DNA of 40,079 bases from Kayfunavirus PDP21P1, in sequence record OZ035821.1. One strand, 5' to 3'. Shown piece after piece: positions 9,094 through 33,347 of the stretch (within the stretch, counting starts at the first letter, position 1; every line of letters begins with the position of its first letter). The notes beneath the pieces were generated by a model. It did not search any database. It was not told the DNA's origin and saw only the letters and a list, made by a program, of their open reading frames with translations. The position numbers were made by a program, and so were the translations under genes.

Positions 9094-9255
9094 ATGTATC
9101 AGAACACTATCAACTTCGAGCGCATCCGTGAACGTCAGCAGACTGAAGGTTACATTCCTAAGGGCCGTAACGCTCATGACTCCGAGGAAACTAAAAGTCG
9201 CAAGTTGAATAAAGTAAGGAGGGATCGCAGTGAGAAGCGTCATTTCTGTCAGTGA
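9094..9255 (+). CDS. gp1.1-like small basic protein
   Basis: 53-aa hand-found ORF. RKLNKVRRDRSEKR resembles the T7 gp1.1 basic segment (RKLNKTKRDRSHKR) as recalled. Overlaps the start of the next ORF by 26 nt. Confidence 0.45.
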   Translation: MYQNTINFERIRERQQTEGYIPKGRNAHDSEETKSRKLNKVRRDRSEKRHFCQ

Positions 9256-9631
9256 TAGATTCTGGAATAAAGTGGACAAGTCTGGAGAATGTTGGGAATG
9301 GACTGCCTCAAGATTTACTAATGGATACGGGCAGTTTACGATAAACGGAAGACCAATAGGGTCTCATAGATTCGCCTACATGGACACCTACGGTCCTATA
9401 CCTAAAGGCTTATTGGTAAGGCATACTTGCGACAACAGACTTTGTTGTAATCCTTCACATTTATTGTTGGGTACACCACAAGATAATATGAACGATAAGG
9501 TCGAACGTGGTAGACAGTACAGGCCTGAGAGGAAGTATGCTGAGGCTATGATGGTGGGCCTCAAGTATAAGGAGGCAAAAGAACTGTTCGGAATAAGCGA
9601 GACACATTTCTATAGGTTGAAAGGAGCATAA
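9230..9631 (+). CDS. HNH homing endonuclease
   Basis: GTG start with TAAGGAGGG RBS. Motifs CWEWT...NGYGQF, GPIPKGLLVRHTCDNRLCCNPSHLLLGTPQDNMNDK. Same family as the ORFs at 18588 and 32898. Confidence 0.75.
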   Translation: MRSVISVSDRFWNKVDKSGECWEWTASRFTNGYGQFTINGRPIGSHRFAYMDTYGPIPKGLLVRHTCDNRLCCNPSHLLLGTPQDNMNDKVERGRQYRPERKYAEAMMVGLKYKEAKELFGISETHFYRLKGA

Positions 9632-9635
9632 CTCT

Positions 9636-9899
9636 ATGGGCCGACTTTATAGTGGCAATCTCAACGCTTTCAGAGCAGCGTGTAACAGGCTCTATCAGTT
9701 AGACTTCGCTGTCATATCTCAGGAGTTTCAAGACTGTACGTCACACCAAGAGTGCATGAAACTCAGGGTGGATGACCGAGCTGGTAACATCTTCGCGCTT
9801 GTGACCTTCTCACGCTACGATGAAGACGTGCTGTATAACACCGCAACCGACTACCTCAACGGTCTCGCTGACCAACTCGACACATGGAGCAAAGCATAA
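9636..9899 (+). CDS. 1.2: Inhibitor of host dGTPase, T7 gp1.2 homolog
   Basis: 87 aa. MGRLYSGNLxAFxAAxNxLxQLDxAVI ... YDEDVLxN matches T7 gp1.2 as recalled. Confidence 0.8.
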   Translation: MGRLYSGNLNAFRAACNRLYQLDFAVISQEFQDCTSHQECMKLRVDDRAGNIFALVTFSRYDEDVLYNTATDYLNGLADQLDTWSKA

Positions 9900-10921
9900 T
9901 GACAACTATCAAAACCAACCCGCACCGCGCTGTAGATTACTCTGAGTCTGGCATTAAGAAGGCACTGGAAGCAGCCGGGTCTCTGGAAGCTGAAGTGAAG
10001 TATGACGGTGTGCGACTAAACCTCCCGGTCCTGCGTGAAGGTGAGACCTACTGGCTGAGCCGTGAGTCTAAACCTCTGCCTGCCTTGGAGTGGATGAACT
10101 CTGAGTTAGGCAACGCGTGGACCCAAGCTGACTGGCGATGGTTCCTGCGTCAAGCTGGCTACGAAGGTGTTGGCCTCATGATTGATGGCGAGGTCATGGT
10201 CAAAGGTGTGGACTTCAACACATCATCGGGTCTCATCCGAACGAAGTGGCTGAATCCTAGCAACGAGGAGTTCGCTGAATGCTATCCGTGGCGTGGAAAG
10301 AAGGTCCCGTTCTGGGTCGCCAGGTCACGACTTCAGGTTGTGGTTTACGGTGTCGTCGACATGACAACCATTGCTGACCCGAAAGCCGAAGGTCCTATTC
10401 ATAGCGTAACCCGCCTGAAGGCCGAAGCTATCGTCCCTCTCCTTCAGAAATACTTCCCGGAAATCGACTGGGTTCTCTCTGAGAGTCATACAGTGTTCGA
10501 CCTTGAGTCTCTTCGTGATTTGTACGAGGAGAAGCGAGCAGATGGACATGAAGGTCTGGTAGTCAAGGACCCGCTTGGTAAGTATAAGCGAGGCAAGAAG
10601 TCGGGCATGTGGAAGATGAAGCCAAGTGAAGAGGCAGATGGTCACGTTGTTCGCCCGGTGTGGGGAACAGAAGGTCTAGCCAACGAAGGCATGGTCATTG
10701 GCTTTGACGTTATTCTCGAGAACGGGATGGAGGTCTCCGCAACTAACATTAGTCGCGCCCTTATGTCCGAGTTCACGGAGAACGTTAAGTCAGACCCTGA
10801 CTACTACAAAGGGTGGGCTTGCCAGATTACCTACATGGAGGAGACACCAGATGGCTCATTGCGACACCCCTCGTTCGACCAGTGGCGTGGAACTGAGGAT
10901 AATCCTACAGTCAAGATTTAA
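9899..10921 (+). CDS. 1.3: ATP-dependent DNA ligase, T7 gp1.3 homolog
   Basis: Start taken at ATG 9899, overlapping the gp1.2 stop (N-terminus MTTIKTNP, as in T7 MMNIKTNP). Adenylation motif EVKYDGVR; C-terminus ETPDGSLRHPSF..RGTEDNP matches T7 ligase. Confidence 0.93.
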   Translation: MTTIKTNPHRAVDYSESGIKKALEAAGSLEAEVKYDGVRLNLPVLREGETYWLSRESKPLPALEWMNSELGNAWTQADWRWFLRQAGYEGVGLMIDGEVMVKGVDFNTSSGLIRTKWLNPSNEEFAECYPWRGKKVPFWVARSRLQVVVYGVVDMTTIADPKAEGPIHSVTRLKAEAIVPLLQKYFPEIDWVLSESHTVFDLESLRDLYEEKRADGHEGLVVKDPLGKYKRGKKSGMWKMKPSEEADGHVVRPVWGTEGLANEGMVIGFDVILENGMEVSATNISRALMSEFTENVKSDPDYYKGWACQITYMEETPDGSLRHPSFDQWRGTEDNPTVKI

Positions 10922-10964
10922 AGTGGACGAAAGGTCGGCCTTAAGAGATTCATTATGACATCAA

Positions 10965-10998
10965 CCCAGTGGTCTTAGCGGACTGCTGGGTTTCTTTG
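10965..10998 (+). terminator. Intrinsic terminator after the ligase gene (TE-like early terminator)
   Basis: 10-bp stem CCCAGTGGTC / GACTGCTGGG with a 6-nt loop, followed by TTTCTTTG. Same position as the T7 early terminator. Confidence 0.55.
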
Positions 10999-11037
10999 CT
11001 TGTTCTAGCAAGCTATCGTCTGGGCCACCAGCTAGAC

Positions 11038-11060
11038 CCTAAGCTATCACTATAGGACAA
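11038..11060 (+). promoter_or_regulatory. Phage RNA polymerase promoter
   Basis: CCTAAGCTATCACTATA^GGACAA. Confidence 0.7.
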
Positions 11061-11084
11061 CCATCAACAACCAAAGGAGACTCT

Positions 11085-11345
11085 ATGTCTAAGAACTTAA
11101 TGTTCAACCGTTATACCGATACATTCCATCTGTCCAACAACCCGTTCGCTTGCATTAAGAGCAACGAGAAGCTTGGATACTTCGGGAAGGCCGTTAAGCT
11201 GTCACCTACAGTCTATGCTCTGATTAGTCCCGGCAAAGCTGAAGAGGCTCGCCAGAAGCGTGAGACCGACGTACCTGTGGTATACACCAAGTGGCCTCGA
11301 GTTCGTCTGTTTATTGAGTTCATGAAGGAGGTGATCAATGGTTAA
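11085..11345 (+). CDS. gp1.6-like protein
   Basis: 86-aa ORF with AAAGGAG RBS; in the T7 gene 1.6 position, upstream of 1.7. Function unknown. Confidence 0.5.
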   Translation: MSKNLMFNRYTDTFHLSNNPFACIKSNEKLGYFGKAVKLSPTVYALISPGKAEEARQKRETDVPVVYTKWPRVRLFIEFMKEVING

Positions 11346-11781
11346 GGTGGGGGATACAGTTAACTATGTTGGACCAGTTGAAGCCCACACGGGACGCTCC
11401 TGTGGCAAGGTGATAGTGGTTAAGAATGGGCATGTGGCTGTTGTTAAGTGGCCCCGTTTATCTGAACCACTCACTCACTCCATTAATTCCTTAAGTATTA
11501 CCAAGCAGGCGCAGTCCGAGACGACAACCATAGGTCAGGAAGATAGCGTCCGTAAGCCGTCTCACTATCAGGTCTTTGACGGTGTGGAATCCATTGAGAT
11601 TATCGCTCGGTCAATGACTGTCAGCGAGTTCCGTGGGTTCTGCATGGGTAACGTCCTGAAGTATCGACTCAGGGCTGGTAAGAAGTCAGAGCTGGCGACT
11701 ATGGAGAAGGACCTGAACAAAGCAGCCTTCTATCAGGAGCTGTTCGACCTACATAAAGGTAAGTGCTATGCTGCCGAGTGA
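11338..11781 (+). CDS. 1.7: Nucleotide kinase, T7 gp1.7 homolog (N-terminally shorter)
   Basis: C-terminal half KPSHYQVFDGVESIEIIARSMTVSEFRGFCMGNVLKYRLRAGKKSELATMEKDLNKAAFY matches the T7 gp1.7 C-terminus as recalled. GAAGGAGG RBS. Confidence 0.75.
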   Translation: MVKVGDTVNYVGPVEAHTGRSCGKVIVVKNGHVAVVKWPRLSEPLTHSINSLSITKQAQSETTTIGQEDSVRKPSHYQVFDGVESIEIIARSMTVSEFRGFCMGNVLKYRLRAGKKSELATMEKDLNKAAFYQELFDLHKGKCYAAE

Positions 11782-11863
11782 GTGGTGCGAGCGTAAATTT
11801 GAGGAGACAGGTAACGTCGATTACCTTCAGCTCTACAACTTATGGAAGGAGCGTGGTCTATGA
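11768..11863 (+). CDS. Small ORF in gene 1.8 position
   Basis: 31-aa hand-found ORF, overlapping both neighbours (ATGA overlap with gene 2). Position only. Confidence 0.2.
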
Positions 11864-12018
11864 CTGACGTAGAGAAGAAATACATCGTGGAACTTGAGGG
11901 ACGTACCCAGTCTTTCGAGGTTCCGGTGTACGCAAAGTCTCTTGAAGAGGCTACCCTGAAGTCCCAAGAGTATGAGGACGCTGGGTTTGTGGTCGGACGG
12001 ATTCGTCCTGAGACCTAA
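11860..12018 (+). CDS. 2: Host RNA polymerase inhibitor, T7 gp2 homolog
   Basis: 52-aa hand-found [18 protein letters not shown]...[10 protein letters not shown] parallels T7 gp2 (HSFEVPIYAETLDEA...AGFEVTRVRP). GGAAGGAG RBS. Confidence 0.75.
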
Positions 12019-12036
12019 ACTATCACTGTAGGACAG
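12014..12036 (+). promoter_or_regulatory. Phage promoter variant (phi2.5-like)
   Basis: CCTAAACTATCACTGTA^GGACAG; one mismatch in the TATA element. Precedes the SSB gene. Confidence 0.55.
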
Positions 12037-12076
12037 ACGTCCAGTTCGTAACTTTTAAATTAGGAGCTTTACACCG

Positions 12077-12775
12077 ATGGCTAAAGAGCAACTGAAGACT
12101 TTCACCACTCCGGTAGCTGGTATCGTTGAGCCTTACGCATGGCTTAACAAAGCAGACACCAAGTTCAACGAGCGTGGTGAGCATAAGGTTAACCTGACAT
12201 TCGACCTGAGCAACCCGAAGGTCCGTAAGATGATTGATGTCTTGCAGAAGATTCACGACGATGCGTATGCGAAAGCACTCGCAGACCACGAGAAGAACCC
12301 ACCTAAGGTTCAGCGTGGCAAGAAGCCTATTGAACCACGAGAAGGCGACATGCCGTGGATTGAGAATGGTGACGGTACTGTTACCCTGAAGTTTAAATGC
12401 TTCGCGTCTTACCTGAAGGATGGTAAGTCAGAGCCTATCGTATTACGGTTCTACGACACCGATGCTAAGTTAATCCGTGACGTCCCGAATATTGGTGCTG
12501 GCTCCAAACTGAAGGTCAAGTTTAAAGTCCTACCGTTCAAGTGGAACGCTGCGACTGGTGCAAGCGTTAAGCTCCAGCTTGAGTCCTGCCTTCTGGTAGA
12601 ACTGAAGGAGTGGAAAGGTGATGGTTCTGGTGGCGATGGTGGCTGGGGTGACGATGAAGACCTCGGTACTGGGTACAAAGCGTCAACCGATGGTGACTTC
12701 GGGTCTGACGACTTCGGTGACGATGGTTCCGAAGGTGGTGACGACTCTGGCTCTGGTGGCGATTACGACTTCTAA
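12077..12775 (+). CDS. 2.5: Single-stranded DNA-binding protein, T7 gp2.5 homolog
   Basis: 232 aa, same length as T7 gp2.5. Conserved core (RGKKPxxPxEGDMP, GDGTxTxKFKC, GSKLKVK, ASVKLQLES) and acidic C-terminal tail ending in DF, as in T7. Confidence 0.93.
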   Translation: MAKEQLKTFTTPVAGIVEPYAWLNKADTKFNERGEHKVNLTFDLSNPKVRKMIDVLQKIHDDAYAKALADHEKNPPKVQRGKKPIEPREGDMPWIENGDGTVTLKFKCFASYLKDGKSEPIVLRFYDTDAKLIRDVPNIGAGSKLKVKFKVLPFKWNAATGASVKLQLESCLLVELKEWKGDGSGGDGGWGDDEDLGTGYKASTDGDFGSDDFGDDGSEGGDDSGSGGDYDF

Positions 12776-13227
12776 TGGCACAATGGTCTGCAAAACGGGG
12801 GCACTCTGTGGGTGCCTACCGCTCTGGACTTGAAGCCAAGAACCAGCAGTGGCTGGAACAGAATGGCGTCAAAGCGGAGTACGAAAGCCATTATATCAAC
12901 TATGTGATTCCAGCTTCCGACCACAAGTACACACCAGATTTTATCCTTCCTAACGGTATCATCGTGGAGACCAAAGGTATCTTCGATAGTGATGACCGTA
13001 AGAAGCACCTTCTGGTACGAGAACAGCACCCAGAGTTAGACATCCGGTTCGTGTTCTCAAGTTCCCGCTCAAAGTTATACAAAGGGTCTCCGACCACGTA
13101 TGGCGCATGGTGCGAAAAGAACGGCTTTAAGTTTGCCGACAAGTTCATCCCGGTTGAGTGGCTGCGAGAGGCGACTGTACATCTGCCTTCAGGCATACTC
13201 ATTCCAAAGAAGAAAGGAGTTAAGTAA
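12775..13227 (+). CDS. 3: Endonuclease I (Holliday junction resolvase), T7 gp3 homolog
   Basis: 150 aa. YVIPASxHxYTPDFxLPNGIxVETKG, DRKKHLLxREQHPELDIRxVFSSSRxKLYKGSPT matches T7 gp3. Confidence 0.93.
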   Translation: MAQWSAKRGHSVGAYRSGLEAKNQQWLEQNGVKAEYESHYINYVIPASDHKYTPDFILPNGIIVETKGIFDSDDRKKHLLVREQHPELDIRFVFSSSRSKLYKGSPTTYGAWCEKNGFKFADKFIPVEWLREATVHLPSGILIPKKKGVK

Positions 13228-13718
13228 TGAGCAAGAAGTTTAAACTGTCAGTAAATACGTGTGGCTGGCCTCGTGGGACCATCGTTACCAAGTGTGAGAA
13301 GGATCCCACACCATATCCGCACATGACCCTAGTTGAGTGCAGCACTCCGGGCACCTACAAAAACGGGTCTAACGGCCACAACACTCAGCCTGATGGTATG
13401 TGGGGAGCATGGGTCCATGACCATGAACTTGAGGAAATAAAGCAGGAAGAGAAACTCACTGGTGTACAGACCACTCAAGTCATGCCAGCTTCTAGCGTAC
13501 CGCCTGTGACTATGAAGCGTGAAGTCCTGACCATCAACAAGGTTGGTGTAGGTCAGACTTTCATCGTCCACGGTAAGCCTGACGAAGTGTACGTGAAGAT
13601 TAGCAACTCTCACGTCTTCAACCATAAGTTGCTCCAGATGCACACGACTGACGCCCAGCGCTTCCAGTCACACCTGAATCTGGTCGTAGTAGAGCTGGTG
13701 GTGTACAATGGTAAGTAA
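13227..13718 (+). CDS. Hypothetical protein, no T7 counterpart at this position
   Basis: 163-aa ORF with AAAGGAG RBS. Start overlaps the gene 3 stop; end overlaps the gene 3.5 start. No recognisable motif. Confidence 0.6.
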   Translation: MSKKFKLSVNTCGWPRGTIVTKCEKDPTPYPHMTLVECSTPGTYKNGSNGHNTQPDGMWGAWVHDHELEEIKQEEKLTGVQTTQVMPASSVPPVTMKREVLTINKVGVGQTFIVHGKPDEVYVKISNSHVFNHKLLQMHTTDAQRFQSHLNLVVVELVVYNGK

Positions 13719-14166
13719 GGTTCAGTTTAACCCACGGTCCCGGACTGACGCTATCTTCGTTCACTGTTCGGCTACCAAGCCAGATATGGACATCGGGGTG
13801 GAGACCATCCGTATGTGGCACAAGCAGCAAGGCTGGCTGGACGTAGGCTATCACTTTATCATCAAACGTGATGGCACTGTGGAAGATGGGCGCCCGGTCA
13901 ATGTCGTAGGGTCACACGTTAAGGACTGGAACTCAAAGTCCGTAGGCGTCTGCCTTGTAGGTGGAATCAACGCTAAGGGTCAGTTTGAAGCTAACTTCAC
14001 TCCAGCCCAGATGAACTCCCTGCGCAACAAGCTGGATGACCTGAAGGCCCTGTACCCTCAGGCAGAAATCAAAGCACACCATGACGTAGCACCTAAGGCG
14101 TGTCCAAGTTTCGACTTGCAACTCTGGCTGTCTACCAATGAACTGGTCACTTCCGACCGTGGTTAG
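13708..14166 (+). CDS. 3.5: Lysozyme / N-acetylmuramoyl-L-alanine amidase, T7 gp3.5 homolog
   Basis: 152 aa. TDAIFVHCSATKP, WLDVGYHFIIKRDGTVE, AHHxVAPKACPSFDL, C-terminal NELVTSDRG identical to T7. Confidence 0.95.
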   Translation: MVSKVQFNPRSRTDAIFVHCSATKPDMDIGVETIRMWHKQQGWLDVGYHFIIKRDGTVEDGRPVNVVGSHVKDWNSKSVGVCLVGGINAKGQFEANFTPAQMNSLRNKLDDLKALYPQAEIKAHHDVAPKACPSFDLQLWLSTNELVTSDRG

Positions 14167-14189
14167 TAAACTCTAAGGAGAACAACTCA

Positions 14190-14411: not shown

Positions 14412-14456
14412 GGACCTTGAGTCTTGTCCCTTTGTTCGCATTTGTGATTAAGAAAT

Positions 14457-14535
14457 GTCTCCATAGCTCAAACGGTAGAGCGGCGGGTCGTTATGGCCTA
14501 TTGCGATTAGGGTTCGAATCCCCGTGGAGACGCCA
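14457..14535 (+). tRNA. tRNA-like element; anticodon arm unresolved
   Basis: Perfect 7-bp acceptor stem (GTCTCCA / TGGAGAC), discriminator G and encoded CCA; canonical D-arm (TA GCTC AAACGGTA GAGC); canonical T-arm (GGG TTCGAAT CCC). The 26 nt between D- and T-arms do not fold into a clean 5-bp stem / 7-nt loop by eye. Possible loop TTGCGAT (anticodon GCG) or GTCGTTA. Confidence 0.45.
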
Positions 14536-14546
14536 CTAAGGAGTGA

Positions 14547-16250
<1,704 letters not shown>

Positions 16251-16261
16251 GGAGGAGTACA

Positions 16262-16489: not shown

Positions 16490-18505
16490 ATGTTTGACCT
16501 TAAGAGTATCTGGGGTTCTGACATCGAGACCAACGGTCTCCTTGATACAGTCTCCCAGTTCCACTGCGGGGTCCTGATTAACGCCGAGTCGAATGAGACC
16601 CTTAAGTATGGGGTAGCTCCGATGGTCGGTATCGTCGGTGGCTTCAAAGAGTATGTGCAGAAGGTTGAAGAGATTGCCGCATCACCTGATGGTATGCTGG
16701 TATTCCACAACGGTATCAACTATGACGTCCCGGCTATAGACAAGCTGAAGCGTCTGTACTTTGGGAAACGCTTTAACTTCCCGAAACACAAGATGATTGA
16801 TACCTTGGTGCTGGGGCGCTTGATGTATCCAAACATTAAGTTCTCAGACATGGGCGCGGTGAAAGCTGGTCGCCTTCCACCTAATATGATGGGACGTCAG
16901 TCTCTTGAGGCTTGGGGTTATCGTCTCGGTGAGATGAAAGGTGAGTACAAACACGATTACGTTGCCAAGTGTAAGGCTGAAGGCATCGAATATAAGGCTG
17001 GGGACGAATGGTTGTTCCCGTCTCAGGAGATGCTGGACTATAACGTTCAAGACGTTGTGGTCACACTGGCGTTGTTCAAGAAGTTCCTGACTGACAAGTA
17101 TTACTTCCAGTCTGAAAAGTTCGCTTTCGACCATATTTATGCGTTGCGTCTGGAACATGATGCTGCGTGGACCTGTGCGAAGATGGAACGTAACGGTTAT
17201 CCGATGAACACCGAGATGGTCGAAGGCTTATATCGTGAACTCACTGTAAAACGTGCAGAGCTGCTGGACAAGCTGCGTTCGACTTTCGGTAGCTGGTATG
17301 CACCGAAGGGAGGCAAGGAGTTCTTCAGGCACCCACGGACAGGAAAGGACCTTCCGAAGTATCCGCGAGTCGTGTATCCTAATGTCGGTGGCATCTTTAA
17401 GAAGCCGAAGAACAAAGCTCAACGCTTAGGTCTGGAGCCTTGCGAGTTCGACTCACGAGACACGATGAAGGGAGCACCATTCACTCCAATCACTTACGTT
17501 GAGTTTAATCCGGGAAGCGGAGACCACTTAGCGAAAGTCCTGATGGAGCGTGGCTGGGAGCCTGTGGACTTCACTGACACCGGGAAACCTGTGGTTGATG
17601 ACGAGACGTTAGAACACGTTAAGTTACCAGACGCAGAGGCTCAGGCTTGCGTAGAGCTGGTCCGTGAGTATCTGGTAGTCCAGAAGCGCATTGGTCAGGC
17701 GGCTGAGGGTAAGAACGCATGGTTGAAACTTGTAGGTCAAGACGGACGTATGCATGGTTCAATCAACCCCTGCGGGGCAGTAACCGGACGTGCGACGCAT
17801 AGTGCACCAAACATGGCTCAAGTCCCGGCTAACGGTGCTCCATATGGTGAGACTTGCCGTGGTGCTTTCGGTGCAGCTTGGAACAAGACGGATGGTAAGC
17901 CAGACCCTTGGATTCAAGTTGGTGTGGATGCCTCAGGTCTTGAGCTTCGTTGTCTGGGGAACCGAGCGGCTCCGTTTGATGGTGGTACCTATGCGAGGAC
18001 TGTGGTCGAAGGTGACATCCACTGGGCCAACGCAGTCAACGCTGGGCTAGCACCTAACGTACCACGCGACAAGTCGAGCCACGACCACGATTCTTTCCGT
18101 AACAACGCTAAGACGTTCATCTATGCGTTCCTGTATGGTGCAGGGGCAGCTAAGATTGGACTGATAGTCGGCGGTGGTAAGAAGGAAGGTTCAGCTCTCA
18201 TGAAGAAATTCATTGAGGGTACACCAGCCATCAAGGACCTCAGGGAAGCTGTGAGTAATACGTTAATCTCAGACTCTAAGTGGGTGGACGGAGAGAACAT
18301 CGTTAAGTGGAAACGCCGTTGGCTGCGTGGACTTGATGGTCGCCGTATCCACATCCGGTCACCCCACTCAGCACTGAACGCATTACTTCAAGGTGACGGT
18401 GCGGTGGTATGCAAGCACTGGATTGTTGAGACTGAGCGTATGCTGGAAGCCGAAGGATATGTCCACGGCTGGGATGGAGACTTTGCGTACATGGCATGGG
18501 TGCAT
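16490..18505 (+). CDS. 5: DNA polymerase, exon 1 (T7 gp5 homolog)
   Basis: Start moved to ATG 16490 (GGAGG RBS; MFDLKSIWGSDIETNGLL parallels T7 MIVSDIEANALL). Thioredoxin-binding loop present (GGIFKKPKNKAQR). Exon ends ...DGDFAYMAWVH, directly followed by TAA. Confidence 0.93.
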
Positions 18506-19103
18506 TAACATCATGGTGCACATTAAATCTGGTGAACTCGGTGAACTCCTAATGGGACAATACCGAGCCAAGCCATAGGGAGGATGTATGAGAGGCAAGA
18601 AGTTAATTCTTGAGGCCACTGAGACTGGCTGCATAATCCCTACGTCACATAAATTGAATAAGGATGGATACTTCCGAAAGAGGACTAACGGTGTCCTTGA
18701 GATGTATCATAGAACTGTATGGATTAAAGCTAATGGTCCAATACCTGACGGTTTCGAAGTAGACCACAAGTGTCGTAATAGAGCTTGTTGCAACGTCGAA
18801 CATCTACAAGTATTAGACCGGGACTCACACTTAGTCAAGACCAACAAAGAGCGATACGCTGCTAGGAAGCTAGAAGCACGAGACTACTGGGTAGAGACTG
18901 GGTGTACTGGAACGAAGTTAGCCGAAGTATTCAATGTGTCGTTCTCAGCCGCCTGTGGGTGGATTAGAGAGTGGAAGGCGTAGAGACTATCCGAAAGGAG
19001 TAGGGCCGTGGGTGAGATTCCCACGTAACCCGAAGCGCCAGACAGTCACCTCAAAGACTGATGATATAGTCCGACACTTCCAGTAATGGGAGAATACAGA
19101 AAG
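18506..19103 (+). mobile_element. Group I intron interrupting the DNA polymerase gene; carries an HNH endonuclease ORF
   Basis: Stop codon immediately after exon 1. Exon 2 restores DELQIACRTQEI...LDTEGKIGPTWKECH, the conserved T7 gp5 C-terminus, in frame. 5' splice site after U18505 with P1 pairing (exon GUGCAU : intron GUGCAC at 18516-18521, U.G at the junction). Intron ends in G19103. Possible P10 (intron CAUC 18509-18512 : exon 2 GAUG). Confidence 0.7.
18588..18983 (+). CDS. Intron-encoded HNH homing endonuclease
   Basis: 131-aa ORF within the intron, in a different frame from the polymerase, with GGGAGG RBS. Motif NGPIPDGFEVDHKCRNRACCNVEHLQVL; same family as the ORFs at 9230 and 32898. 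Confidence 0.8.
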   Translation: MRGKKLILEATETGCIIPTSHKLNKDGYFRKRTNGVLEMYHRTVWIKANGPIPDGFEVDHKCRNRACCNVEHLQVLDRDSHLVKTNKERYAARKLEARDYWVETGCTGTKLAEVFNVSFSAACGWIREWKA

Positions 19104-19259
19104 GATGAGTTACAGATTGCTTGTCGTACTCAAGAAATAGCAGAACGTACAGTAGAAATTGCTCAACTTGCTATGCGTAAGGTGGGTGAGTTCTATAACT
19201 TTAAATGTGTCCTTGATACCGAAGGTAAGATTGGACCAACGTGGAAGGAGTGTCACTAA
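19104..19259 (+). CDS. 5: DNA polymerase, exon 2 (C-terminal 51 aa including the D/E of the catalytic HDE motif)
   Basis: Translation DELQIACRTQEIAERTVEIAQLAMRKVGEFYNFKCVLDTEGKIGPTWKECH, against recalled T7 DEIQVGCRTEEIAQVVIETAQEAMRWVGDHWNFRCLLDTEGKMGPNWAICH. In frame with exon 1 after removal of 18506-19103. Confidence 0.85.
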   Translation, partial: DELQIACRTQEIAERTVEIAQLAMRKVGEFYNFKCVLDTEGKIGPTWKECH

Positions 19260-19558
19260 TGGCTATGACCAAACGCGCTATCGTAAGTTTCAACCTTAAG
19301 GCTGTACTTCCTACAGACCAAGAGGAAATAATCATTAAGGGTCTGCGAGAGCTGGCTAAAGGAGTTAACTCTGGTGAAATCAATCCTGACTTTAAGCAGA
19401 GCCATATGTTGACATTGTGGCTGACAGAGGGTATGGAAGCAGTGATTGAGCTTGTTCTGAGGGACAACTTTCGTTCAATGATTAAAGAGGCTGTACAGGA
19501 GTATTCAGATGCAGAGTTATTCAGCGTCTCACCAGCTACTGTGAGGTTCAAGCAATGA
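19259..19558 (+). CDS. 5.5: T7 gp5.5 homolog (H-NS-binding protein family)
   Basis: Start taken at ATG 19259, overlapping the polymerase stop (TAATG); N-terminus MAMTKR as recalled for T7 gp5.5. The track start at 19241 lies inside exon 2. Confidence 0.65.
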   Translation: MAMTKRAIVSFNLKAVLPTDQEEIIIKGLRELAKGVNSGEINPDFKQSHMLTLWLTEGMEAVIELVLRDNFRSMIKEAVQEYSDAELFSVSPATVRFKQ

Positions 19559-19764
19559 GTGAATACTTACGGGTCCTTGCGGCCCTCAAGTCCTGCCCGA
19601 AGACCTTCCAGTCCAACTATGTGCGCAACAACGCTGCACTTGTGGCTGAGGCTGCGAGTCGTGGACATCTAAGCTGCCTGTCTATGGACGGGCGTAACAA
19701 CGGTGCGTGGGAGATTACCGCTGAAGGCACCAAGTTCCTGAACCAACACGGAGGCTGTCTGTGA
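19555..19764 (+). CDS. 5.7: T7 gp5.7 homolog (inhibitor of sigma-S-dependent host transcription)
   Basis: 69 aa, same length as T7 gp5.7. MSEYLRVLAALKSCPKTFQSNYVRNNAALVAEAASRGHLSCL...GAWEITAEGTKFL is near-identical to the recalled T7 protein. Confidence 0.85.
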   Translation: MSEYLRVLAALKSCPKTFQSNYVRNNAALVAEAASRGHLSCLSMDGRNNGAWEITAEGTKFLNQHGGCL

Positions 19765-24686: not shown

Positions 24687-25733
24687 ATGGCAAACGTTCC
24701 GGGTCAGAAAATTGGTACAGACCAAGGTAAAGGCAAATCTGGTTCCGACGCTCTGGCGTTGTTCCTGAAGGTCTTTGCTGGTGAAGTCCTGACCGCATTC
24801 ACTCGCCGCTCTGTAACTGCTGACAAGCATATTGTCCGTACCATTCAGAACGGTAAGTCTGCTCAGTTCCCGGTCATGGGTCGCACCTCTGGTGTGTATC
24901 TGGCTCCGGGTGAGCGACTGTCTGATAAGCGTAAAGGTATCAAACATACCGAGAAAGTGATTACCATTGATGGTCTGCTGACTGCCGATGTGATGATTTT
25001 CGACATTGAAGACGCGATGAACCACTACGACGTGGCTGGCGAGTATTCCAACCAGTTGGGCGAAGCTCTGGCTATCGCTGCTGATGGTGCGGTGCTGGCT
25101 GAAATGGCTATCCTGTGTAACCTCCCGGCTGCATCCAACGAGAACATCGCTGGTCTGGGTACTGCGTCCGTACTGGAAGTTGGTAAGAAAGCTGACCTCG
25201 ACACCCCGGCTAAACTTGGTGAAGCAATCATTGGTCAACTGACCATTGCTCGTGCGAAGCTGACCTCCAACTACGTACCTGCTGGCGACCGTTACTTCTA
25301 CACCACGCCGGACAACTACTCTGCAATCCTCGCTGCTCTGATGCCTAACGCTGCTAACTATGCTGCGCTGATTGACCCAGAGACTGGTAACATCCGTAAC
25401 GTGATGGGCTTCGTTGTTGTTGAAGTTCCGCATCTTGTACAGGGTGGCGCTGGTGAGACCCGTGGTGCTGATGGTATCACTATCGCTTCCGGCCAGAAAC
25501 ACGCATTCCCGGCAACTGCTGATGGTGACGACGTTAAAGTTGCTATGGACAACGTTGTAGGTCTGTTCTCTCACCGTTCTGCTGTGGGTACTGTGAAGCT
25601 GCGTGACTTGGCGCTGGAACGTGACCGTGACGTCGATGCTCAGGGCGACCTGATTGTTGGTAAGTACGCTATGGGTCACGGTGGTCTGCGTCCTGAAGCG
25701 GCTGGCGCACTGGTTTTCAGCCCAGCGGCGTAA
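24687..25733 (+). CDS. 10: Major capsid protein 10A, T7 gp10 homolog
   Basis: 348 aa. ALFLKVFxGEVLTAF, GKSAQFPV, HTEKVITIDGLLTADV, ALMPNAANYAALIDPE, SAVGTVKLRDLALER, YAMGHGGLRPEAAGA match T7 gp10A. Strong RBS. Confidence 0.96.
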   Translation: MANVPGQKIGTDQGKGKSGSDALALFLKVFAGEVLTAFTRRSVTADKHIVRTIQNGKSAQFPVMGRTSGVYLAPGERLSDKRKGIKHTEKVITIDGLLTADVMIFDIEDAMNHYDVAGEYSNQLGEALAIAADGAVLAEMAILCNLPAASNENIAGLGTASVLEVGKKADLDTPAKLGEAIIGQLTIARAKLTSNYVPAGDRYFYTTPDNYSAILAALMPNAANYAALIDPETGNIRNVMGFVVVEVPHLVQGGAGETRGADGITIASGQKHAFPATADGDDVKVAMDNVVGLFSHRSAVGTVKLRDLALERDRDVDAQGDLIVGKYAMGHGGLRPEAAGALVFSPAA

Positions 25734-25864
25734 GCACCTTTAGCCAACCTAACGTCGCTACAGTAGCGGCTGCACCTGAAGAGGAGACTCTAACTCCTCA
25801 ACAGAAAGCTGCGCGTACTCGTGCTGCGAACAGGGCCGCTAAACTGGCTGAGTCCAACAACTAA
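24687..25864 (+). CDS. 10: Minor capsid protein 10B (predicted -1 frameshift product of gene 10)
   Basis: Slippery heptamer G-GTT-TTC at 25712-25718, four codons before the 10A stop. The -1 frame is open from 25718 to a TAA at 25862-25864, adding about 48 aa (QPSGVSTF...LAESNN). Same arrangement as T7 10A/10B. Confidence 0.5.
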
Positions 25865-25927: not shown

Positions 25928-26494
25928 ATGGCTCAATACATTCCACTGAATGCTAACGATGACTTAGACGCCATCAACGATATGTTAGCTGCTATCGGTG
26001 AACCAGCAGTCCTACAGCTTGACGAAGGCAATGCTGACGTCTCGAACGCACAACGTATCCTGCATCGTGTCAATCGTCAGGTCCAAGCTAAAGGCTGGAA
26101 CTTTAACATCAACGAAGCTGCTGTACTGACACCTGATGTCCAAGACAACAGGATTCGATTCCTACCGTCATACCTTCGTGTAATGACTGCCGGGGCCACC
26201 AGCTACTACAGCAACATGGGTGGATACCTGTACGACCTGTCCACTCAGTCAACCACTTTCACCGACCCTATCACGGTAGAGCTTGTGGAGATGAAGCCAT
26301 TCTCCGAGATGCCTGTGGTCTTCAGGGACTACATCGTCACTAAAGCTAGCCGTGAGTTCAACGCTAAGTTCTTCGGTAGCCCAGAGTCAGAGCTATACCT
26401 TCGTGAGCAGGAAGCAGAACTCTATCAGCAGGTTATGGAGTACGAGATGGACACTGGTCGCTACAACATGATGTCTGACATCGGGAGGGACTAA
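25928..26494 (+). CDS. 11: Tail tubular protein A, T7 gp11 homolog
   Basis: 188 aa. ILxxINRQxQxxGWxFNI, YIVTKASRxFNxxFFGxPE and MEYEMD parallel T7 gp11. Confidence 0.92.
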   Translation: MAQYIPLNANDDLDAINDMLAAIGEPAVLQLDEGNADVSNAQRILHRVNRQVQAKGWNFNINEAAVLTPDVQDNRIRFLPSYLRVMTAGATSYYSNMGGYLYDLSTQSTTFTDPITVELVEMKPFSEMPVVFRDYIVTKASREFNAKFFGSPESELYLREQEAELYQQVMEYEMDTGRYNMMSDIGRD

Positions 26495-26721
26495 TGGCTA
26501 GTCACAATCTGAAGATTCACCGCCAGCACTTTGGTCCGGTACAGCTAGGCCTAAAGACAGCAGAGCTGAGACTTAACGACCGGGACTTTAAGGTTGGCGA
26601 CTGGCTTATCCTGAATGAGTGGGACAACGGGTATACTGGACAACAGGTAGCACGTAAGGTTGTCCACATTGCTGACGTTGGTGACATCGCTGGCGGATAC
26701 GTCCTAATGAGTATGATTTAA
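26494..26721 (+). CDS. DUF3850 / ASCH-like small protein inserted between tail tube genes
   Basis: 75-aa ORF; start overlaps the gene 11 stop (TAATG), GGGAGGG RBS. HNLKIHRQHFGPVQLGLKTAELRLNDRDFKVGDWLILNEWD...YTG fits the DUF3850 (PUA/ASCH-like) signature as recalled. No gene lies between 11 and 12 in T7. Confidence 0.55.
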   Translation: MASHNLKIHRQHFGPVQLGLKTAELRLNDRDFKVGDWLILNEWDNGYTGQQVARKVVHIADVGDIAGGYVLMSMI

Positions 26722-26730
26722 GGAGGGCCT

Positions 26731-29088: not shown

Positions 29089-29112
29089 CTTATTGAAGGG
29101 CCTATAGATTTA

Positions 29113-29135
29113 CCTTAACTATCACTATAGGGACT
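29113..29135 (+). promoter_or_regulatory. Phage RNA polymerase promoter (phi13-like)
   Basis: CCTTAACTATCACTATA^GGGACT. Confidence 0.75.
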
Positions 29136-29164
29136 ATAGGCCATTAAGGTTATAAGGAGACTTT

Positions 29165-29617
29165 ATGTATATTCGCAAGGCTACGGAACCGGATGTCCAC
29201 TACTTTCTGTGGCATCTTTCAGCAGATGATGTTAATGAGTGCAAAGCAAACTACGGGTCAACCGTTGGTCTCTCTGAAAGACTGCTTAAGCACCTATCTC
29301 CGTCATCTGTGGTTTTAACGAACGGTGTAGGCGAAGTGTTTGCCTATGGTGGAAACCAAGGGGATAACGTATGGTTCTTGACTTCAGGTCTGGTCTATAA
29401 GCTGAGACCTAAAGAGAAGCGAGAGTTCATAAAGCGTATCTCTGAGTACAGGGACTTAATGTTAGACCAATACGGGACCATCTGGAACTACGTGTGGTCA
29501 GGCAATAAGTCTCACATTAAATTCTTGAAGTTGCTGGGAGCTAAGTTCCACCCTGATGTGACGATAAGTCCGGTAACAGGTGAGCGTTTTCAGTTATTCA
29601 CAATCTCTAAGGAGTAA
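29165..29617 (+). CDS. Internal virion protein A (gp13-like)
   Basis: 150-aa ORF with AAGGAG RBS, directly downstream of the phi13-like promoter. Assigned by position and size. Confidence 0.65.
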   Translation: MYIRKATEPDVHYFLWHLSADDVNECKANYGSTVGLSERLLKHLSPSSVVLTNGVGEVFAYGGNQGDNVWFLTSGLVYKLRPKEKREFIKRISEYRDLMLDQYGTIWNYVWSGNKSHIKFLKLLGAKFHPDVTISPVTGERFQLFTISKE

Positions 29618-29619
29618 AG

Positions 29620-30021
29620 ATGACCAAAGTTTGTTTAACTTGTGGTCTGGAGAAACCAATCACTGAGTTTCACAAACAGGCCACCAAGAAAGACCCTGAG
29701 CGCCGAAAACCTCATTGCAGAAGCTGCTGGTCCAAGGTAAGGAGGGATAGAACACCTGAGCATAATAGGCGATACAACCTGAAGAAATTCTACGGAATAA
29801 CACCTGAGGAGTATGATAAAATGCTTCGTGAGCAAGGTGGGACCTGTGCCATTTGTCATGGTACAGAGACTGTAGGGAGACTAGCTGTAGATCACTGCCA
29901 TTCTACAGGTAGGGTTAGGGGTCTGTTATGCACCAACTGCAATCAAGCTATAGGCAAGCTGAAGGATGACTCTCAGTTGCTTAGGAACGCTATCAACTAT
30001 CTGGAGGTGAACCGTGTGTGA
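29620..30021 (+). CDS. Endonuclease VII-like (HNH superfamily) nuclease, inserted between genes 13 and 14
   Basis: Cys/His-rich motif CAICHG...LAVDHCHSTGRVRGLLCTNCNQAIG, characteristic of the T4 endonuclease VII N-terminal zinc-binding nuclease domain. AAGGAG RBS. Confidence 0.75.
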   Translation: MTKVCLTCGLEKPITEFHKQATKKDPERRKPHCRSCWSKVRRDRTPEHNRRYNLKKFYGITPEEYDKMLREQGGTCAICHGTETVGRLAVDHCHSTGRVRGLLCTNCNQAIGKLKDDSQLLRNAINYLEVNRV

Positions 30022-30601
30022 ACCAGTATCCATCGGTTTAGGAATTATGGCTGTAGCCGGGGCCACTATGTCCGCGTCTCAACAAGCCAAGGCTGAGGGT
30101 GCTGCTATCGACGCGCAGAACCGACAGGCTAAGGAGATGATTAAGCAGATGAACTACTCTGACGCCAACCTGAAGATGCAAGAGCGGGACCTTAAGGAGC
30201 AGCAGGTCGCTGAGCTGACCGAGACCACTCTGAATGGTATCCGTAATCAGGGCATGGTCCGCGCAGCGGTAGCCGAGTCTGGCCTAGAAGGTAACTCCAT
30301 GAACCGCATTGAGCGCTCGGTGGAAGGCGACACCGTGAAGGAACGGGCTGGCATCACCGAAAGTTACAACCGCGACTATGCGGCTATCTTCGGGAACCGT
30401 ATCGCCAACATTGAGAACACCAAGTCTGCTATCCGTGGTCAAGGTAAAATCATCAAGACCAGTCCACTGGCCCATGCACTTAATGTTGCTAACGCCGGGA
30501 TGCAAGGTTACGCCGCTGGTAAGTCAATGTCTGGGACTTCAGGCTCTGGTGGTGCTGCACCAATTAGTGCTGCTAAAGGCACGCCTACAGGTCATAGCTA
30601 A
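30014..30601 (+). CDS. 14: Internal virion protein B, T7 gp14 homolog
   Basis: GTG start with GGAGG RBS. N-terminus MCEPVSIG parallels T7 MCWAAAIP; 195 aa against 196 in T7. Confidence 0.85.
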   Translation: MCEPVSIGLGIMAVAGATMSASQQAKAEGAAIDAQNRQAKEMIKQMNYSDANLKMQERDLKEQQVAELTETTLNGIRNQGMVRAAVAESGLEGNSMNRIERSVEGDTVKERAGITESYNRDYAAIFGNRIANIENTKSAIRGQGKIIKTSPLAHALNVANAGMQGYAAGKSMSGTSGSGGAAPISAAKGTPTGHS

Positions 30602-30612
30602 GAGGAGGACTA

Positions 30613-32895
30613 ATGGCTAGTAATATTGAATCAGCTCTGGCTAATCGGACTATGGGTCGTGGCAGAGCGCCTGGTAAAACTATCGCCGTCAACTATCAAG
30701 CAGCCAGCGTTCAGGCTCCAACTGGGGACTCAGGGCTGGCTCGTGCATTAACTAACTTCGTTGAGTCTGGGACAGGATTGTACAAGCAGTTCAAGGACGA
30801 TGAGAAGACCAGAGCTGACGAGCGTTCTAACGAGATTATCCGTAAGCTGACACCTCAGCAAAGACGTGAGGCTATCCAGAACGGCACATTGCTGTATCAG
30901 GATGACCCTTACGCTATGGAAGCACTTCGAGTCAAGACTGGTCGTAATGCTGCCTTTGCTGTAGACGACGAGATTAACGTTAAGATTCAGAACGGTGAGT
31001 TCCGTACACGTCAGGACATGGAAGAGTATCGCCACCAGCGACTTCAGGACGCCGCTAAGTCCTATGCTGAAGAGGCGGGTATTAACCCTACCGACGAGTT
31101 CTTCCAGCGTGGATTCAACGATAACATCACGGACCGAAACATCGCTATCTATGGGTCCTTCAATAAGTATTTCAGTAAGCAGTCTGAAGAGACAGCAATG
31201 TTGAATACTCGTATTGAGATGAACTCATTCCTGAACGATGGCGACCTGATGCGTTCACCTGAGTCAGGTAAGACCTTCATGGCCTACCTTCGTGATGGAC
31301 TGACTACTGCTGCTATCCCTTCAGACCAGAGAGCACGGGAGGTCATTACCCAGACGGTCCGTGACGCAATCCAGAAGTCCGGCGGCTCAAACTTCCTACA
31401 GCAAGTACGGGGCGAGCGTATCACCCTTAATGGTGTTGACGCTACCATCGAAGAGATTGTAGGACCTGACGTCTTCAATGCTGCTATGGTTGAGGCCCAA
31501 GGTACTGAGTATAAACTGGTGGCTAAGTATCAGGAAGACTTGTCGTTAGGCGTTCAGTCTGCGATTCTTCAGGATGACCCAACCATCGGTCTGGCCCAGA
31601 TTCAGAAACTCAAGGAGCAGAACAACCTGCTTCAGCCTGGTGAAGAACTCACGCCTCAGCGTCAGATGCTTATTAATGCCGAAGCCAGCTTACTGGAAGC
31701 GGTCAAGCGTAAGTCTGCTGAACAGGCGAAGGAGAACACTAAGTTAATCCAGACTCAGAACAAGCAACTGGTCATCGACCAAGTGTATCAGCGACGTCTG
31801 GCTGGGGACAACGTGTCCACCAACTATGAGGACCTTCCGGTCTCTGAAGCTACAGGAGAGTTCAAGCGTTCAGACATGAACAACTATGCGTCTGCAAAGC
31901 TACAGCAGATTGACCAGATGGACATCCCTGAGGCTGCTAAGGACGCTCAGAAGGTGGCATTGTTAAGAGCTGACACTAACAACGGTCCGTTCCGTAATGC
32001 ATTCCAGACGCTTACTCAGGACGCTGCTGGTGAGTGGCAAGCTGCGGTCATCCGTGGGCAGTACGACCCAGACAAGATGCAACGCTTCGAATCTCTTCGT
32101 CGTGCCTACACTCAGGACCCTTCAAGTTTCGCTGCTCTGTATCCTGACCAAGCTCAGTTGTTCTCTACGTTCGACCAGATGGACAAGATGGGTCTGGACC
32201 CTCAGACGATGATTGAAGCTGATAAGCAAGCTGCAAGTCAAAGCCGTGAGATGCGCATGGAGTCAGACAAGGCGTGGCAGGAGTTGAAGAACGACTCTAA
32301 GAACACCCAGTTGTCTCGCCTCCCAACGTCTCTGGACTCAAGTGCTCGTAAGGTCTGGGACTCATGGTACTATCGTACAGGTAACGCTGACGCTGCAACT
32401 CAGCAGACTCAACGCTGGCTGAATGAGAACACCGTAACGTTCCAGTCTGAAGGTTCTGACGGTAAGTCCATCGGCATGGTGTCCAAGCACCAGCTTATGG
32501 TCGGGGATAACCCAGAGTCGTGGCAGGTGGGTCGAGACATTATCGACACCGCTCGTAAGCAGCTCATTAAGGCCAACCCTTGGGTAGTGAACTCTCAGTT
32601 GTCAGTTGTTGAACAGAACGGCTCTATCTTCCTCCAAGACGCTACGGGGACTATTCGTATTCGATACGATAAAGAACTTGTAGGTAAACTATACCGCGAA
32701 CAACAGCAGAAGGCACAAGATGCCGCATATGCTCAGGCAGAACGTGACGCTAACAAGCGAGCGCGTATCGTCGGGACTAAAGCTGCTGGTGACAAACGTC
32801 GAGCTGACCGAGAGGCCAACATCGAGAAGCGCGGTGGGATGTACAATGACGTCTCACTGGAGGGTATCGCAAATGTACTAATCGGTAAGGAGTAA
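30613..32895 (+). CDS. 15: Internal virion (core) protein C, T7 gp15 homolog
   Basis: 760 aa. DERSNEIIRKLTPQQRREA...GTLLYQDDPYAMEALRVKTGRNAA matches the gp15 family as recalled. Confidence 0.9.
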   Translation: MASNIESALANRTMGRGRAPGKTIAVNYQAASVQAPTGDSGLARALTNFVESGTGLYKQFKDDEKTRADERSNEIIRKLTPQQRREAIQNGTLLYQDDPYAMEALRVKTGRNAAFAVDDEINVKIQNGEFRTRQDMEEYRHQRLQDAAKSYAEEAGINPTDEFFQRGFNDNITDRNIAIYGSFNKYFSKQSEETAMLNTRIEMNSFLNDGDLMRSPESGKTFMAYLRDGLTTAAIPSDQRAREVITQTVRDAIQKSGGSNFLQQVRGERITLNGVDATIEEIVGPDVFNAAMVEAQGTEYKLVAKYQEDLSLGVQSAILQDDPTIGLAQIQKLKEQNNLLQPGEELTPQRQMLINAEASLLEAVKRKSAEQAKENTKLIQTQNKQLVIDQVYQRRLAGDNVSTNYEDLPVSEATGEFKRSDMNNYASAKLQQIDQMDIPEAAKDAQKVALLRADTNNGPFRNAFQTLTQDAAGEWQAAVIRGQYDPDKMQRFESLRRAYTQDPSSFAALYPDQAQLFSTFDQMDKMGLDPQTMIEADKQAASQSREMRMESDKAWQELKNDSKNTQLSRLPTSLDSSARKVWDSWYYRTGNADAATQQTQRWLNENTVTFQSEGSDGKSIGMVSKHQLMVGDNPESWQVGRDIIDTARKQLIKANPWVVNSQLSVVEQNGSIFLQDATGTIRIRYDKELVGKLYREQQQKAQDAAYAQAERDANKRARIVGTKAAGDKRRADREANIEKRGGMYNDVSLEGIANVLIGKE

Positions 32896-32897
32896 AC

Positions 32898-33347
32898 ATG
32901 AAGAACGGGACAGCCAGTGAGAGACTGGCAGAACTGTCAGTAGCTGAAGAGTCTGGCTGTATCCGATTCACAGGCCACTTAGACGGAGAAGGATACGGAA
33001 GGATAATGGTGGCTAGGGTTAAGTATATGGCACATCGTCTCTCCTACTCCATAAATAAGGGGCCAATACCAGATGGCTATGTTGTTAGGCATAAATGTGA
33101 TAATCCATCATGCATAAATCCTGAACACCTTGAAGTAGGAACGCAGGCTGACAACATTGCAGATAAGGTATCCAGAGGCCGACAGGCAAGAGGTAGTGGA
33201 GCAGGCAGAGCTATACTGACAGAGGAATCTGTTAGGGAAATACGCTCCAGTCCATTAAAAGTATCTGAGCTTTCCACCTTATACGGGGTAAGCGTCGTTT
33301 CCATACGAAATATATTGAGGAGAAAGACATGGCAACACGTGGTGTAA
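32898..33347 (+). CDS. HNH homing endonuclease inserted between genes 15 and 16
   Basis: CIRFTGHLDGEGYGRI, GPIPDGYVVRHKCDNPSCINPEHLEVGTQADNIADKVSRGRQ; same family as 9230 and 18588. AAGGAG RBS; AT-rich codon usage. Confidence 0.8.
   Translation: MKNGTASERLAELSVAEESGCIRFTGHLDGEGYGRIMVARVKYMAHRLSYSINKGPIPDGYVVRHKCDNPSCINPEHLEVGTQADNIADKVSRGRQARGSGAGRAILTEESVREIRSSPLKVSELSTLYGVSVVSIRNILRRKTWQHVV

Follow-up and report, generated by a model that had tools for sequence, protein, structure and literature searches.

Phage T7 encodes gp2.8, between genes 2.5 and 3, and gp7.7, between genes 7.3 and 8, two putative free-standing homing endonucleases of the HNH_3 type. In phage K1F, the DNA polymerase gene contains an intron that carries the gene for gp5.3 (PMC4925675), and the related introns of the T7-like phages PhiI and W31, which encode I-TslI, have been reported to be self-splicing (Bonocora and Shub 2004, as cited in PMC3428280). 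Homing endonucleases with an endonuclease VII motif (the F-CphI/DHHRN family) have also been described in podoviruses that already have endonuclease I (PMC6083498). Here we analyzed the 40,079-base pair (bp) sequence of Kayfunavirus PDP21P1 (OZ035821.1), which we refer to, at its full length, as the window. It is the circularly permuted genome of a K1F-like Kayfunavirus, which belongs to the T7 group, and it carries five nuclease genes: HEG-A, HEG-B and HEG-C, a fourth at position 822 (the 822 gene) and a fifth between genes 13 and 14 (gene 13.5). Our analysis suggests, with a probability of roughly 85%, that these are five independent selfish nuclease cassettes, each from a lineage that keeps to a single genome site in different T7-like phages. 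The features concerned are the following.

822..1259, + strand: the 822 gene, a T7 gp3.8-type HNH_3 gene, free-standing, flanked by genes 18.5 (Rz-like) and 19
9094..9255, + strand: gene 1.1, chimeric, its 3' end overlapped by the start of HEG-A
9171..9621, + strand: HEG-A cassette, 451 bp replacing 93 bp of the 3' part of a K1F-type gene 1.1
9230..9631, + strand: HEG-A, a free-standing HNH_3 endonuclease gene of the T7 gp2.8/gp7.7 type
16490..18505, + strand: gene 5 (DNA polymerase) exon 1, Pfam DNA_pol_A, ending ..AWVH
18506..19103, + strand: predicted group I intron of 598 nucleotides, with P1, P3-P9, P7.1 and P7.2
18588..18983, + strand: HEG-B, an intron-encoded HNH endonuclease gene, the orthologue of K1F gp5.3
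19104..19259, + strand: gene 5 exon 2, DELQIACRT...KECH*
29620..30021, + strand: gene 13.5, an endonuclease VII-motif gene between genes 13 and 14
32898..33347, + strand: HEG-C, a T7 gp7.7-type HNH_3 gene, free-standing, flanked by genes 15 and 16
33329..33478, + strand: first 150 nucleotides of gene 16; the allele here is linked to HEG-C presence

An earlier interpretation made from the letters of the window (hereafter the sequence-only reading) had described HEG-A, HEG-B and HEG-C as three homing endonucleases of one HNH family, one of them inside an intron. Their positions were correct: HEG-A (9230-9631, GTG start, 133 amino acids) lies at the gene 1.1/1.2 junction, HEG-B (18588-18983, 131 amino acids) in the group I intron of gene 5, and HEG-C (32898-33347, 149 amino acids) between genes 15 and 16. 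Their description as HNH-type homing-endonuclease-like genes, one intron-borne, is supported by the intron evidence given below and by matches to Pfam HNH_3 (PF13392; curated cut-off 24.8 bits), which scored 49.4 bits for HEG-A (E = 4e-13), 57.6 bits for HEG-B (E = 9e-16) and 50.9 bits for HEG-C (E = 1e-13). The 822 gene also matched HNH_3 (74.1 bits, E = 7e-21). Thus, all three belong to one family at the Pfam level, but that family comprises four genes of the window, and at a finer level the best PHROG differs: phrog_1872 for HEG-A, phrog_6254 (160 bits) for HEG-B and phrog_99 for the 822 gene, the scores of HEG-C being nearly equal for 6254, 59 and 1872.

The signature that the three proteins were said to have in common is present in full in HEG-A and HEG-C (GYG, GPIPxGxxVRHxCDNxxCxNPxHLxxGT, DN and RGRQ), but about half of the motif string is replaced in HEG-B, which has GYF, CRN, CCNV, VLD and KERY at these places. 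Pairwise alignment by BLASTP gave the same division. HEG-A and HEG-C are full-length homologues (37% identity over 128 amino acids, E = 1.5e-24), whereas HEG-B aligns with HEG-A over 48 amino acids and with HEG-C over 66, in the N-terminal region and the HNH core only. HEG-A and HEG-C also resemble T7 gp7.7 and gp2.8 (35-48% identity over 117-135 amino acids). All four share one architecture, with an N-terminal CxEW/GYG, an HNH core with a zinc loop, RGRQ and C-terminal helices, and all four match PHROG families 59, 1872 and 6254. They differ in site, since the window genes occupy the 1.1/1.2 (HEG-A) and 15/16 (HEG-C) junctions instead of the T7 sites 2.5/3 and 7.3/8.

We surveyed the distribution of the five genes in 50,697 GenBank phage records. 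The sequence-only reading had placed the insertions between or inside conserved genes and proposed a check of which ones vary among relatives. Genome comparison and the records show variable insertions throughout: each of the five is present in some close relatives and absent from others, and none is universal. K1F has the intron and lacks the other four cassettes, while MZ234011 carries an 822-type gene and HEG-C without the intron. Compared with relatives lacking each gene, the boundaries are sharp. At two junctions, those of HEG-C and gene 13.5, the cassette takes the ribosome-binding site of the downstream gene and supplies a replacement, and strong Shine-Dalgarno sequences precede all five nuclease genes. 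The idea that five such genes are a heavy load for a T7-like phage did not survive comparison. T7 itself has four nuclease genes, three of the HNH_3 type (2.8, 3.8 and 7.7) and one of the PD-(D/E)XK type (5.3); the close relative MZ234021 has four HNH_3 genes, one of them free-standing directly after gene 5; and Hafnia phage Ca, a Kayfunavirus, has the same 13.5 and 18.5/19 genes and one more endonuclease (PMC8861465). Five optional selfish nuclease genes are an ordinary load for K1F-type phages. Published genomes already contain HEG-C, the 822 gene and gene 13.5, these three in Kayfunaviruses, as well as the intron that carries HEG-B.

As to origin, intragenomic spread and repeated acquisition had both been put forward. 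In a neighbour-joining tree of 26 proteins, clades formed by site and not by genome, with which the BLASTP scores agree. One clade holds the 1.1/1.2 genes, another the 15/16 genes, a third the gene 5 intron genes together with the free-standing gene found after gene 5, and a fourth the 18.5/19 genes together with T7 3.8. The window genes are 64-100% identical to their same-site relatives, but at most 37% identical to each other or alignable over the core only. Clustering by site and closer same-site relatives do not support intragenomic spread and do support separate acquisition of lineages established long ago, so of the two proposals the second is the one that fits. An origin of the three or four copies from one HNH homing endonuclease gene, by duplication inside this genome and transfer to further sites, is accordingly very improbable: all copies are indeed HNH_3 proteins, and HEG-A and HEG-C are homologous over their full length, but these two have diverged to 37% identity, HEG-B aligns over only 48-66 amino acids, and far closer same-site relatives (64-99%) exist in other phages. 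Moreover, T7 gp7.7 and the gene of Klebsiella phage IME205 are closer to HEG-A and HEG-C than those two are to each other.

Two further explanations concern what the genes do and whether they still do it. The nucleases could be kept for a service to the phage, such as degradation of host DNA, exclusion of competitors or, for the gene adjoining the terminase, help in packaging, as with HK97 gp74. Intact open reading frames (ORFs) with strong ribosome-binding sites would agree with this, as would the location of the 822 gene directly upstream of the large terminase gene. Such roles were suggested by the authors who observed a spontaneous 397-bp deletion of the HNH gene in the Hafnia Kayfunavirus, where virions with the deletion predominated in small plaques (PMC8861465). 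We nevertheless consider it unlikely. Each gene is missing from most close relatives, four of the five from K1F; homing elements would be expected to show just such patchy presence, site fidelity and linked flanks; and exclusion of competitors through cleavage of their DNA amounts in practice to the homing mechanism. T7-type packaging with terminal repeats is also not known to need an HNH partner. About equally improbable is that some cassettes are relics in decay, passed on vertically and no longer able to cut or move. The homologues of HEG-C at the 15/16 site range from 56% to 99% identity, which suggests long residence, but the residues for catalysis and, presumably, zinc binding are preserved, there are no frameshifts, and genomes that are otherwise 6-16% different carry near-identical copies.

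Several points weigh against our reading of five mobile, site-faithful cassettes. The mobility of the cassettes is deduced from patterns of distribution and sequence, the tree has no bootstrap support and is built on short proteins, and the structural model of HEG-A matches solved structures weakly (Foldseek E = 4e-3 to 7e-3). The allele of gene 16 that is linked to HEG-C could reflect shared ancestry instead of co-conversion or immunity, and phage HC13, which lacks HEG-C, carries this allele. Finally, the genome is mosaic throughout, and 100%-identical blocks are found in regions apart from the nuclease genes too. The raised identity around HEG-C and the 822 gene is therefore not specific evidence, and we set it aside as a sign of recent transfer.

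Our model for the five site-faithful cassettes is that the set was assembled by separate acquisitions from co-infecting relatives and not by copying within the genome. In a mixed infection, the endonuclease would cut the genome that lacks its gene near the insertion point, the break would be repaired from the genome that carries the gene, and the cassette would be copied across with some of its flanking sequence. Cleavage of gene-less genomes and repair from the carrier are proposed by analogy with established phage homing endonucleases. The sequence-only reading had suggested that each insertion marks a candidate cleavage site in an endonuclease-free relative, which is a reasonable inference. 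For HEG-C, the linked allele of gene 16 lends it indirect support, and this allele and the chimeric gene 1.1 are indirect signs of cleavage of the gene-less allele and super-Mendelian inheritance. Harm to the phage would be limited in two ways: the free-standing cassettes sit at exact gene junctions, taking the downstream ribosome-binding site and supplying a new one, and the intron would splice out of the polymerase mRNA.

HEG-A is the sole nuclease gene of the five without a match in published phage records, and its insertion site is conserved. No blastn match to it was found among the 50,697 GenBank phage records, and none of the 247 related phage records that match the flanks of its cassette covers the cassette. 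We rejected the notion that the gene is unique, as a search of 5.8 billion proteins gave a 90%-identity cluster of 19 variants, the listed members of which lie on nine different assemblies of ~40 kb; an independent gene call in a public protein collection gives the identical 133-amino acid product. Relatives at 99%, 72% and 64% identity were found in Logan contigs, all at the same site. In all three contigs examined the relative overlaps the 3' end of gene 1.1 and precedes gene 1.2, and one of these contigs, which has a T3-type gene 1.05, belongs to another T7-like phage. In contig L009, the counterpart of HEG-A is 97-99% identical to it, and the flanks are 91-95% identical to those in the window. 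The closest relative in GenBank phages is the HNH gene of Klebsiella Przondovirus (for example, IME205 gp09), with 46-48% identity and the same early-gene neighbourhood. With genes 1.2 and 1.3 as its neighbours, the Przondovirus gene flanks gene 1.2 at the opposite end from HEG-A, and it is too distant to belong to HEG-A's lineage.

Homology to K1F, MZ234011 and MZ234021 stops at 9170 and restarts at 9622, and the right edge of the HEG-A cassette retains AGGAGCATAA, which comprises the stop codon and Shine-Dalgarno sequence preceding gene 1.2. HEG-A has its own Shine-Dalgarno sequence, TAAGGAGG, 7 nucleotides before the GTG start. The interrupted gene 1.1 matches Pfam Phage_1_1 (32 bits, cut-off 21) over residues 26-50. 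Alignment with the relatives and with T7 gp1.1 revealed that its first 25 codons are K1F-type and that the remainder (..ETKSRKLNKVRRDRSEKRHFCQ*) is T7 gp1.1-like; this remainder also resembles the gene 1.1 found upstream of HEG-A relatives in other contigs. The T7-type part of gene 1.1 appears to have arrived with the HEG-A cassette.

In an alignment of 48 HEG-A relatives, H65, C21, C67, C72 and H77 are invariant, and N74 and N86 nearly so. H65 is the catalytic His, and we take C21, C67, C72 and H77 to be the zinc ligands. An AlphaFold2 model built on these 48 relatives had a predicted local distance difference test (pLDDT) score of 94.3, and its best matches among solved structures in Foldseek were I-PpoI and I-HmuI (probability 0.96-1.0, with the E values given above). 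I-HmuI, the intron HNH enzyme of phage SPO1 (PDB 1U3E), shares with the model the His-Me finger fold and an HNH_3-type motif (probability 1.0, template modelling (TM) score 0.47). I-HmuI, however, is a nicking enzyme with a different DNA-binding extension, and its sequence relationship to HEG-A is very distant: it was the top solved-structure match of the HEG-A sequence profile, a weak one at E = 0.02, and I-PpoI was also weak. Of the helix-turn-helix families, Pfam HTH_23 and HTH_28 matched in the C-terminal part only marginally (E = 0.04-0.1), so DNA binding by the three C-terminal helices of the model is put forward as a prediction. Single-sequence searches of solved structures with HEG-B and HEG-C returned nothing meaningful.

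HEG-C lies in a block of 433 bp (32896-33328) that exactly fills the gap from the gene 15 stop codon to the gene 16 start; in K1F this gap is 4 bp. It uses TAAGGAG, which in K1F is the Shine-Dalgarno sequence of gene 16, and its 3' end provides GAGGAG for gene 16, with which its last 19 nucleotides overlap. A homologue at this site is present in 16 of 208 related records, in addition to a divergent gene in GA2A. HEG-C is 76-84% identical to the 15/16-site genes of other phages, including 7.7C of CR44b (84% protein identity), which occupies exactly the same junction with no difference of substance, and its DNA is 99.8% identical to the MZ234011 gene. The GA2A gene (402-851) encodes an HNH protein 56% identical to HEG-C at exactly the same 15/16 junction and is accompanied by its own variant of the gene 16 start; its sequence suggests long residence or turnover of the HEG-C lineage at one site.

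The two flanks of HEG-C behave differently. The last 90 nucleotides of gene 15 are nearly invariant in all genomes compared, with or without HEG-C. In the first 150 nucleotides of gene 16, six HEG-C-bearing genomes have one common haplotype, and four of five genomes without HEG-C have another, which differs at about 35 of the 150 positions by our count. This asymmetry fits co-conversion and/or a cleavage target in the 5' end of gene 16 in the allele without HEG-C. Positions 33329..33478 are thus a candidate co-conversion tract and/or cleavage-resistant target region. In HC13 (390-402), an altered pentanucleotide, CACCT, stands just before the gene 15 stop codon; the state of this phage may be the footprint of a loss of HEG-C or a resistant allele gained without it.

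HEG-B appears to sit in a group I intron of gene 5, which starts with ATG at 16490 behind a GGAGG Shine-Dalgarno sequence. An Rfam scan of the whole window at the gathering threshold missed the intron. A local, permissive scan with RF00028 matched the full length of the model at 35.8 bits (gathering score 50, E = 3e-7), the low score being due to the insertion of a 400-nucleotide ORF. Because this lies below the gathering score, we added a covariation test on the introns, with the ORF removed, of the window, phage 13a, Aeromonas phage PT2, Salmonella phage CHRF_10037 and Klebsiella phage mtp4. All 56 pairs formed in 100% of the 280 cells and 11 pairs had compensatory changes, a result based on five sequences from which the structure was also drawn. 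As controls, none of 500 shuffles scored as high, and slid structures had at most one such pair. The U18505.G pair at the 5' splice site is invariant in the five introns, and the terminal G19103 precedes exon 2. The ORF of HEG-B, which has GGGAGG as its Shine-Dalgarno sequence and in which His replaces the last Asn, as read from the sequence, is placed between the two strands of P6. Joined as predicted, the gene 5 exons give a gapless alignment with the polymerase genes of MZ234011 and MZ234021, which have no intron, and restore ..AWVHDELQ.. and the HDE motif. The K1F intron has the same insertion point, between the His and Asp of this motif, and gene 5 of K1F and 13a is annotated in RefSeq as joined coding sequences (CDSs).

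At the DNA level, the HEG-B-bearing intron and K1F 14937-15534 are 99.2% identical, with essentially no difference between the two systems, and the HEG-B protein is 98% identical to K1F gp5.3 and 76% identical to the intron ORF of phage 13a. Exon 1 is 84-100% identical to that of K1F in 100-nucleotide windows, so the intron is better conserved than its host gene. Among the surveyed records, 70 carry the intron, 13 of them at 95% identity or more, and the T7-type phage 13a carries it at 80%. The first 100 nucleotides of exon 2 are 96-100% identical to those of the intron-bearing phages K1F, CHX131 and Ro45lw, and the aligned exon 2 (19104-19255) is 77.6% identical to that of the intron-less MZ234021. 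The intron and the first 100 nucleotides of exon 2 are 99-100% identical to those of Ro45lw, the exon 1 of which is ~84% identical to that of the window (70-93% in 100-nucleotide windows). MZ234021 has, at 25458-25739, directly after gene 5, a free-standing HNH_3 gene of 93 codons whose product is 50% identical to HEG-B. A free-standing HNH gene after gene 5 was reportedly proposed by Bonocora and Shub in 2009 as the precursor arrangement of mobile introns. Directly downstream of exon 2, gene 5.5 (ORF 19241-19558; window 19260-19560) is ~50% identical to its counterparts in K1F, CHX131 and Ro45lw, and the sequence on either side of it is 94-100% identical. Gene 5.5 thus forms a sharp mosaic boundary adjoining a nuclease-bearing element; boundaries of this kind have been described in general terms (PMC10448857).

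The 822 gene lies directly upstream of gene 19, which encodes the large terminase subunit, in a variable block of 542 bp (758-1299) where K1F has 128 unrelated bp. It has AAGGAGG as its Shine-Dalgarno sequence upstream of a GTG start, and its product is 47.5% identical to T7 gp3.8 over 61 amino acids. We found it in 57 phage records, 14 of them at 95-100% identity and ~40 more at ~73% identity at the same site. It had been called an AP2-HNH gene; the HNH part belongs to HNH_3, but the AP2 part was not borne out, as no Pfam AP2 match appeared at E <=0.01 in the whole protein or at E <=10 in the C-terminal 54 amino acids.

The gene at 29620 (gene 13.5), which had been considered endonuclease VII-like, is confirmed as such by a match to Pfam Endonuclease_7 (PF02945; 97 bits) over residues 54-129 of 133. 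Its motifs, read from the translation, are CAIC, DHCH, R (in GRVRG) and CTNCN, all in the C-terminal half. Its block of 400 bp (29615-30014) stands where K1F has 6 bp; the gene takes the former Shine-Dalgarno sequence of gene 14 (TAAGGAG) and gives GGAGG to gene 14. In the survey, nine records matched, seven of them over the full length at 80-90% identity, among which the EcoDS1 13.5 gene is 90% identical in DNA. Location of the motif in the C-terminal half and the presence of a separate endonuclease I have been used to mark homing endonucleases off from resolvases (PMC6083498). Both hold for gene 13.5, since the window has its own Holliday junction resolvase, the endonuclease I encoded by gene 3 (12775-13227; Phage_endo_I, 272 bits). 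The F-CphI/DHHRN family shares with gene 13.5 the CX2C, DHxH, R and CX2C-N motifs and a phage background with a separate endonuclease I. Gene 13.5, unlike F-CphI, is not associated with an intron, and its product is a predicted nuclease.

Beyond site fidelity, we tentatively hypothesize that HEG-A represents a 1.1/1.2-specific lineage of free-standing homing endonucleases, the homing of which would drag donor sequence across genera, as in the chimeric gene 1.1, and that the HEG-C lineage would likewise impose a linked, possibly cleavage-resistant 5' allele of gene 16. In that case, the limits of allele exchange in the early and ejectosome genes of Kayfunaviruses would be determined by these nucleases. 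This broader proposal has, in our view, slightly less than an even chance of being right. For annotation, gene 5 should be given as a joined CDS (16490-18505 and 19104-19259), HEG-A with its GTG start, and the five nuclease genes as optional mobile cassettes instead of core functions. The clean junctions illustrate how a free-standing homing endonuclease gene can be accommodated between essential genes of a phage with their translation left undisturbed, and the lineages appear to keep to one site even as they pass from phage to phage. Kayfunaviruses find use in phage therapy of K1 and other E. coli, for which it helps to know the dispensable genes and, in cocktails, which genes can convert co-infecting relatives. 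HEG-A, HEG-C and their putative targets are ready candidates for biochemical mapping.

The closest GenBank relatives are ~93-94% identical across 85-90% of the first 25 kb of the window, the gene order of which is that of K1F, with the large terminase gene at 1252-3018, the RNA polymerase gene at 6013-8694 and the DNA polymerase gene from 16490. The right end of K1F matches window positions 3502-3882 and its left end 3682-4493. The overlap of these matches places the physical genome ends and a collapsed terminal repeat of ~200 bp near 3682-3882, and the window is a permuted assembly. One further element lies upstream of gene 1.1 and HEG-A.

8999..9021, + strand: phage-RNA-polymerase promoter-like element, CTAAACTATCACTATAGGA

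It may function as a promoter, given its likeness to T7-group promoters, and 12-mers of its motif are repeated at as many as nine intergenic sites of the window. A tRNA-like gene (14457-14535), which immediately precedes the primase/helicase gene, was identified by ARAGORN as tRNA-Thr with anticodon CGT and scored 37 bits with the Rfam tRNA model (gathering score 29). Compared with K1F and MZ234021 it constitutes an insertion of 84 bp; MZ234011 has it too, and it occurs in 34 phage records, where it is labelled tRNA-Thr, pseudo-tRNA or not at all. Between tail genes 11 and 12, a small gene (26494-26721, 75 amino acids; Pfam DUF3850/ASCH) is present in MZ234011 and MZ234021 and absent from K1F, homology to which stops at 26496 and restarts at 26722; it is a further variable insertion, of a non-nuclease kind.

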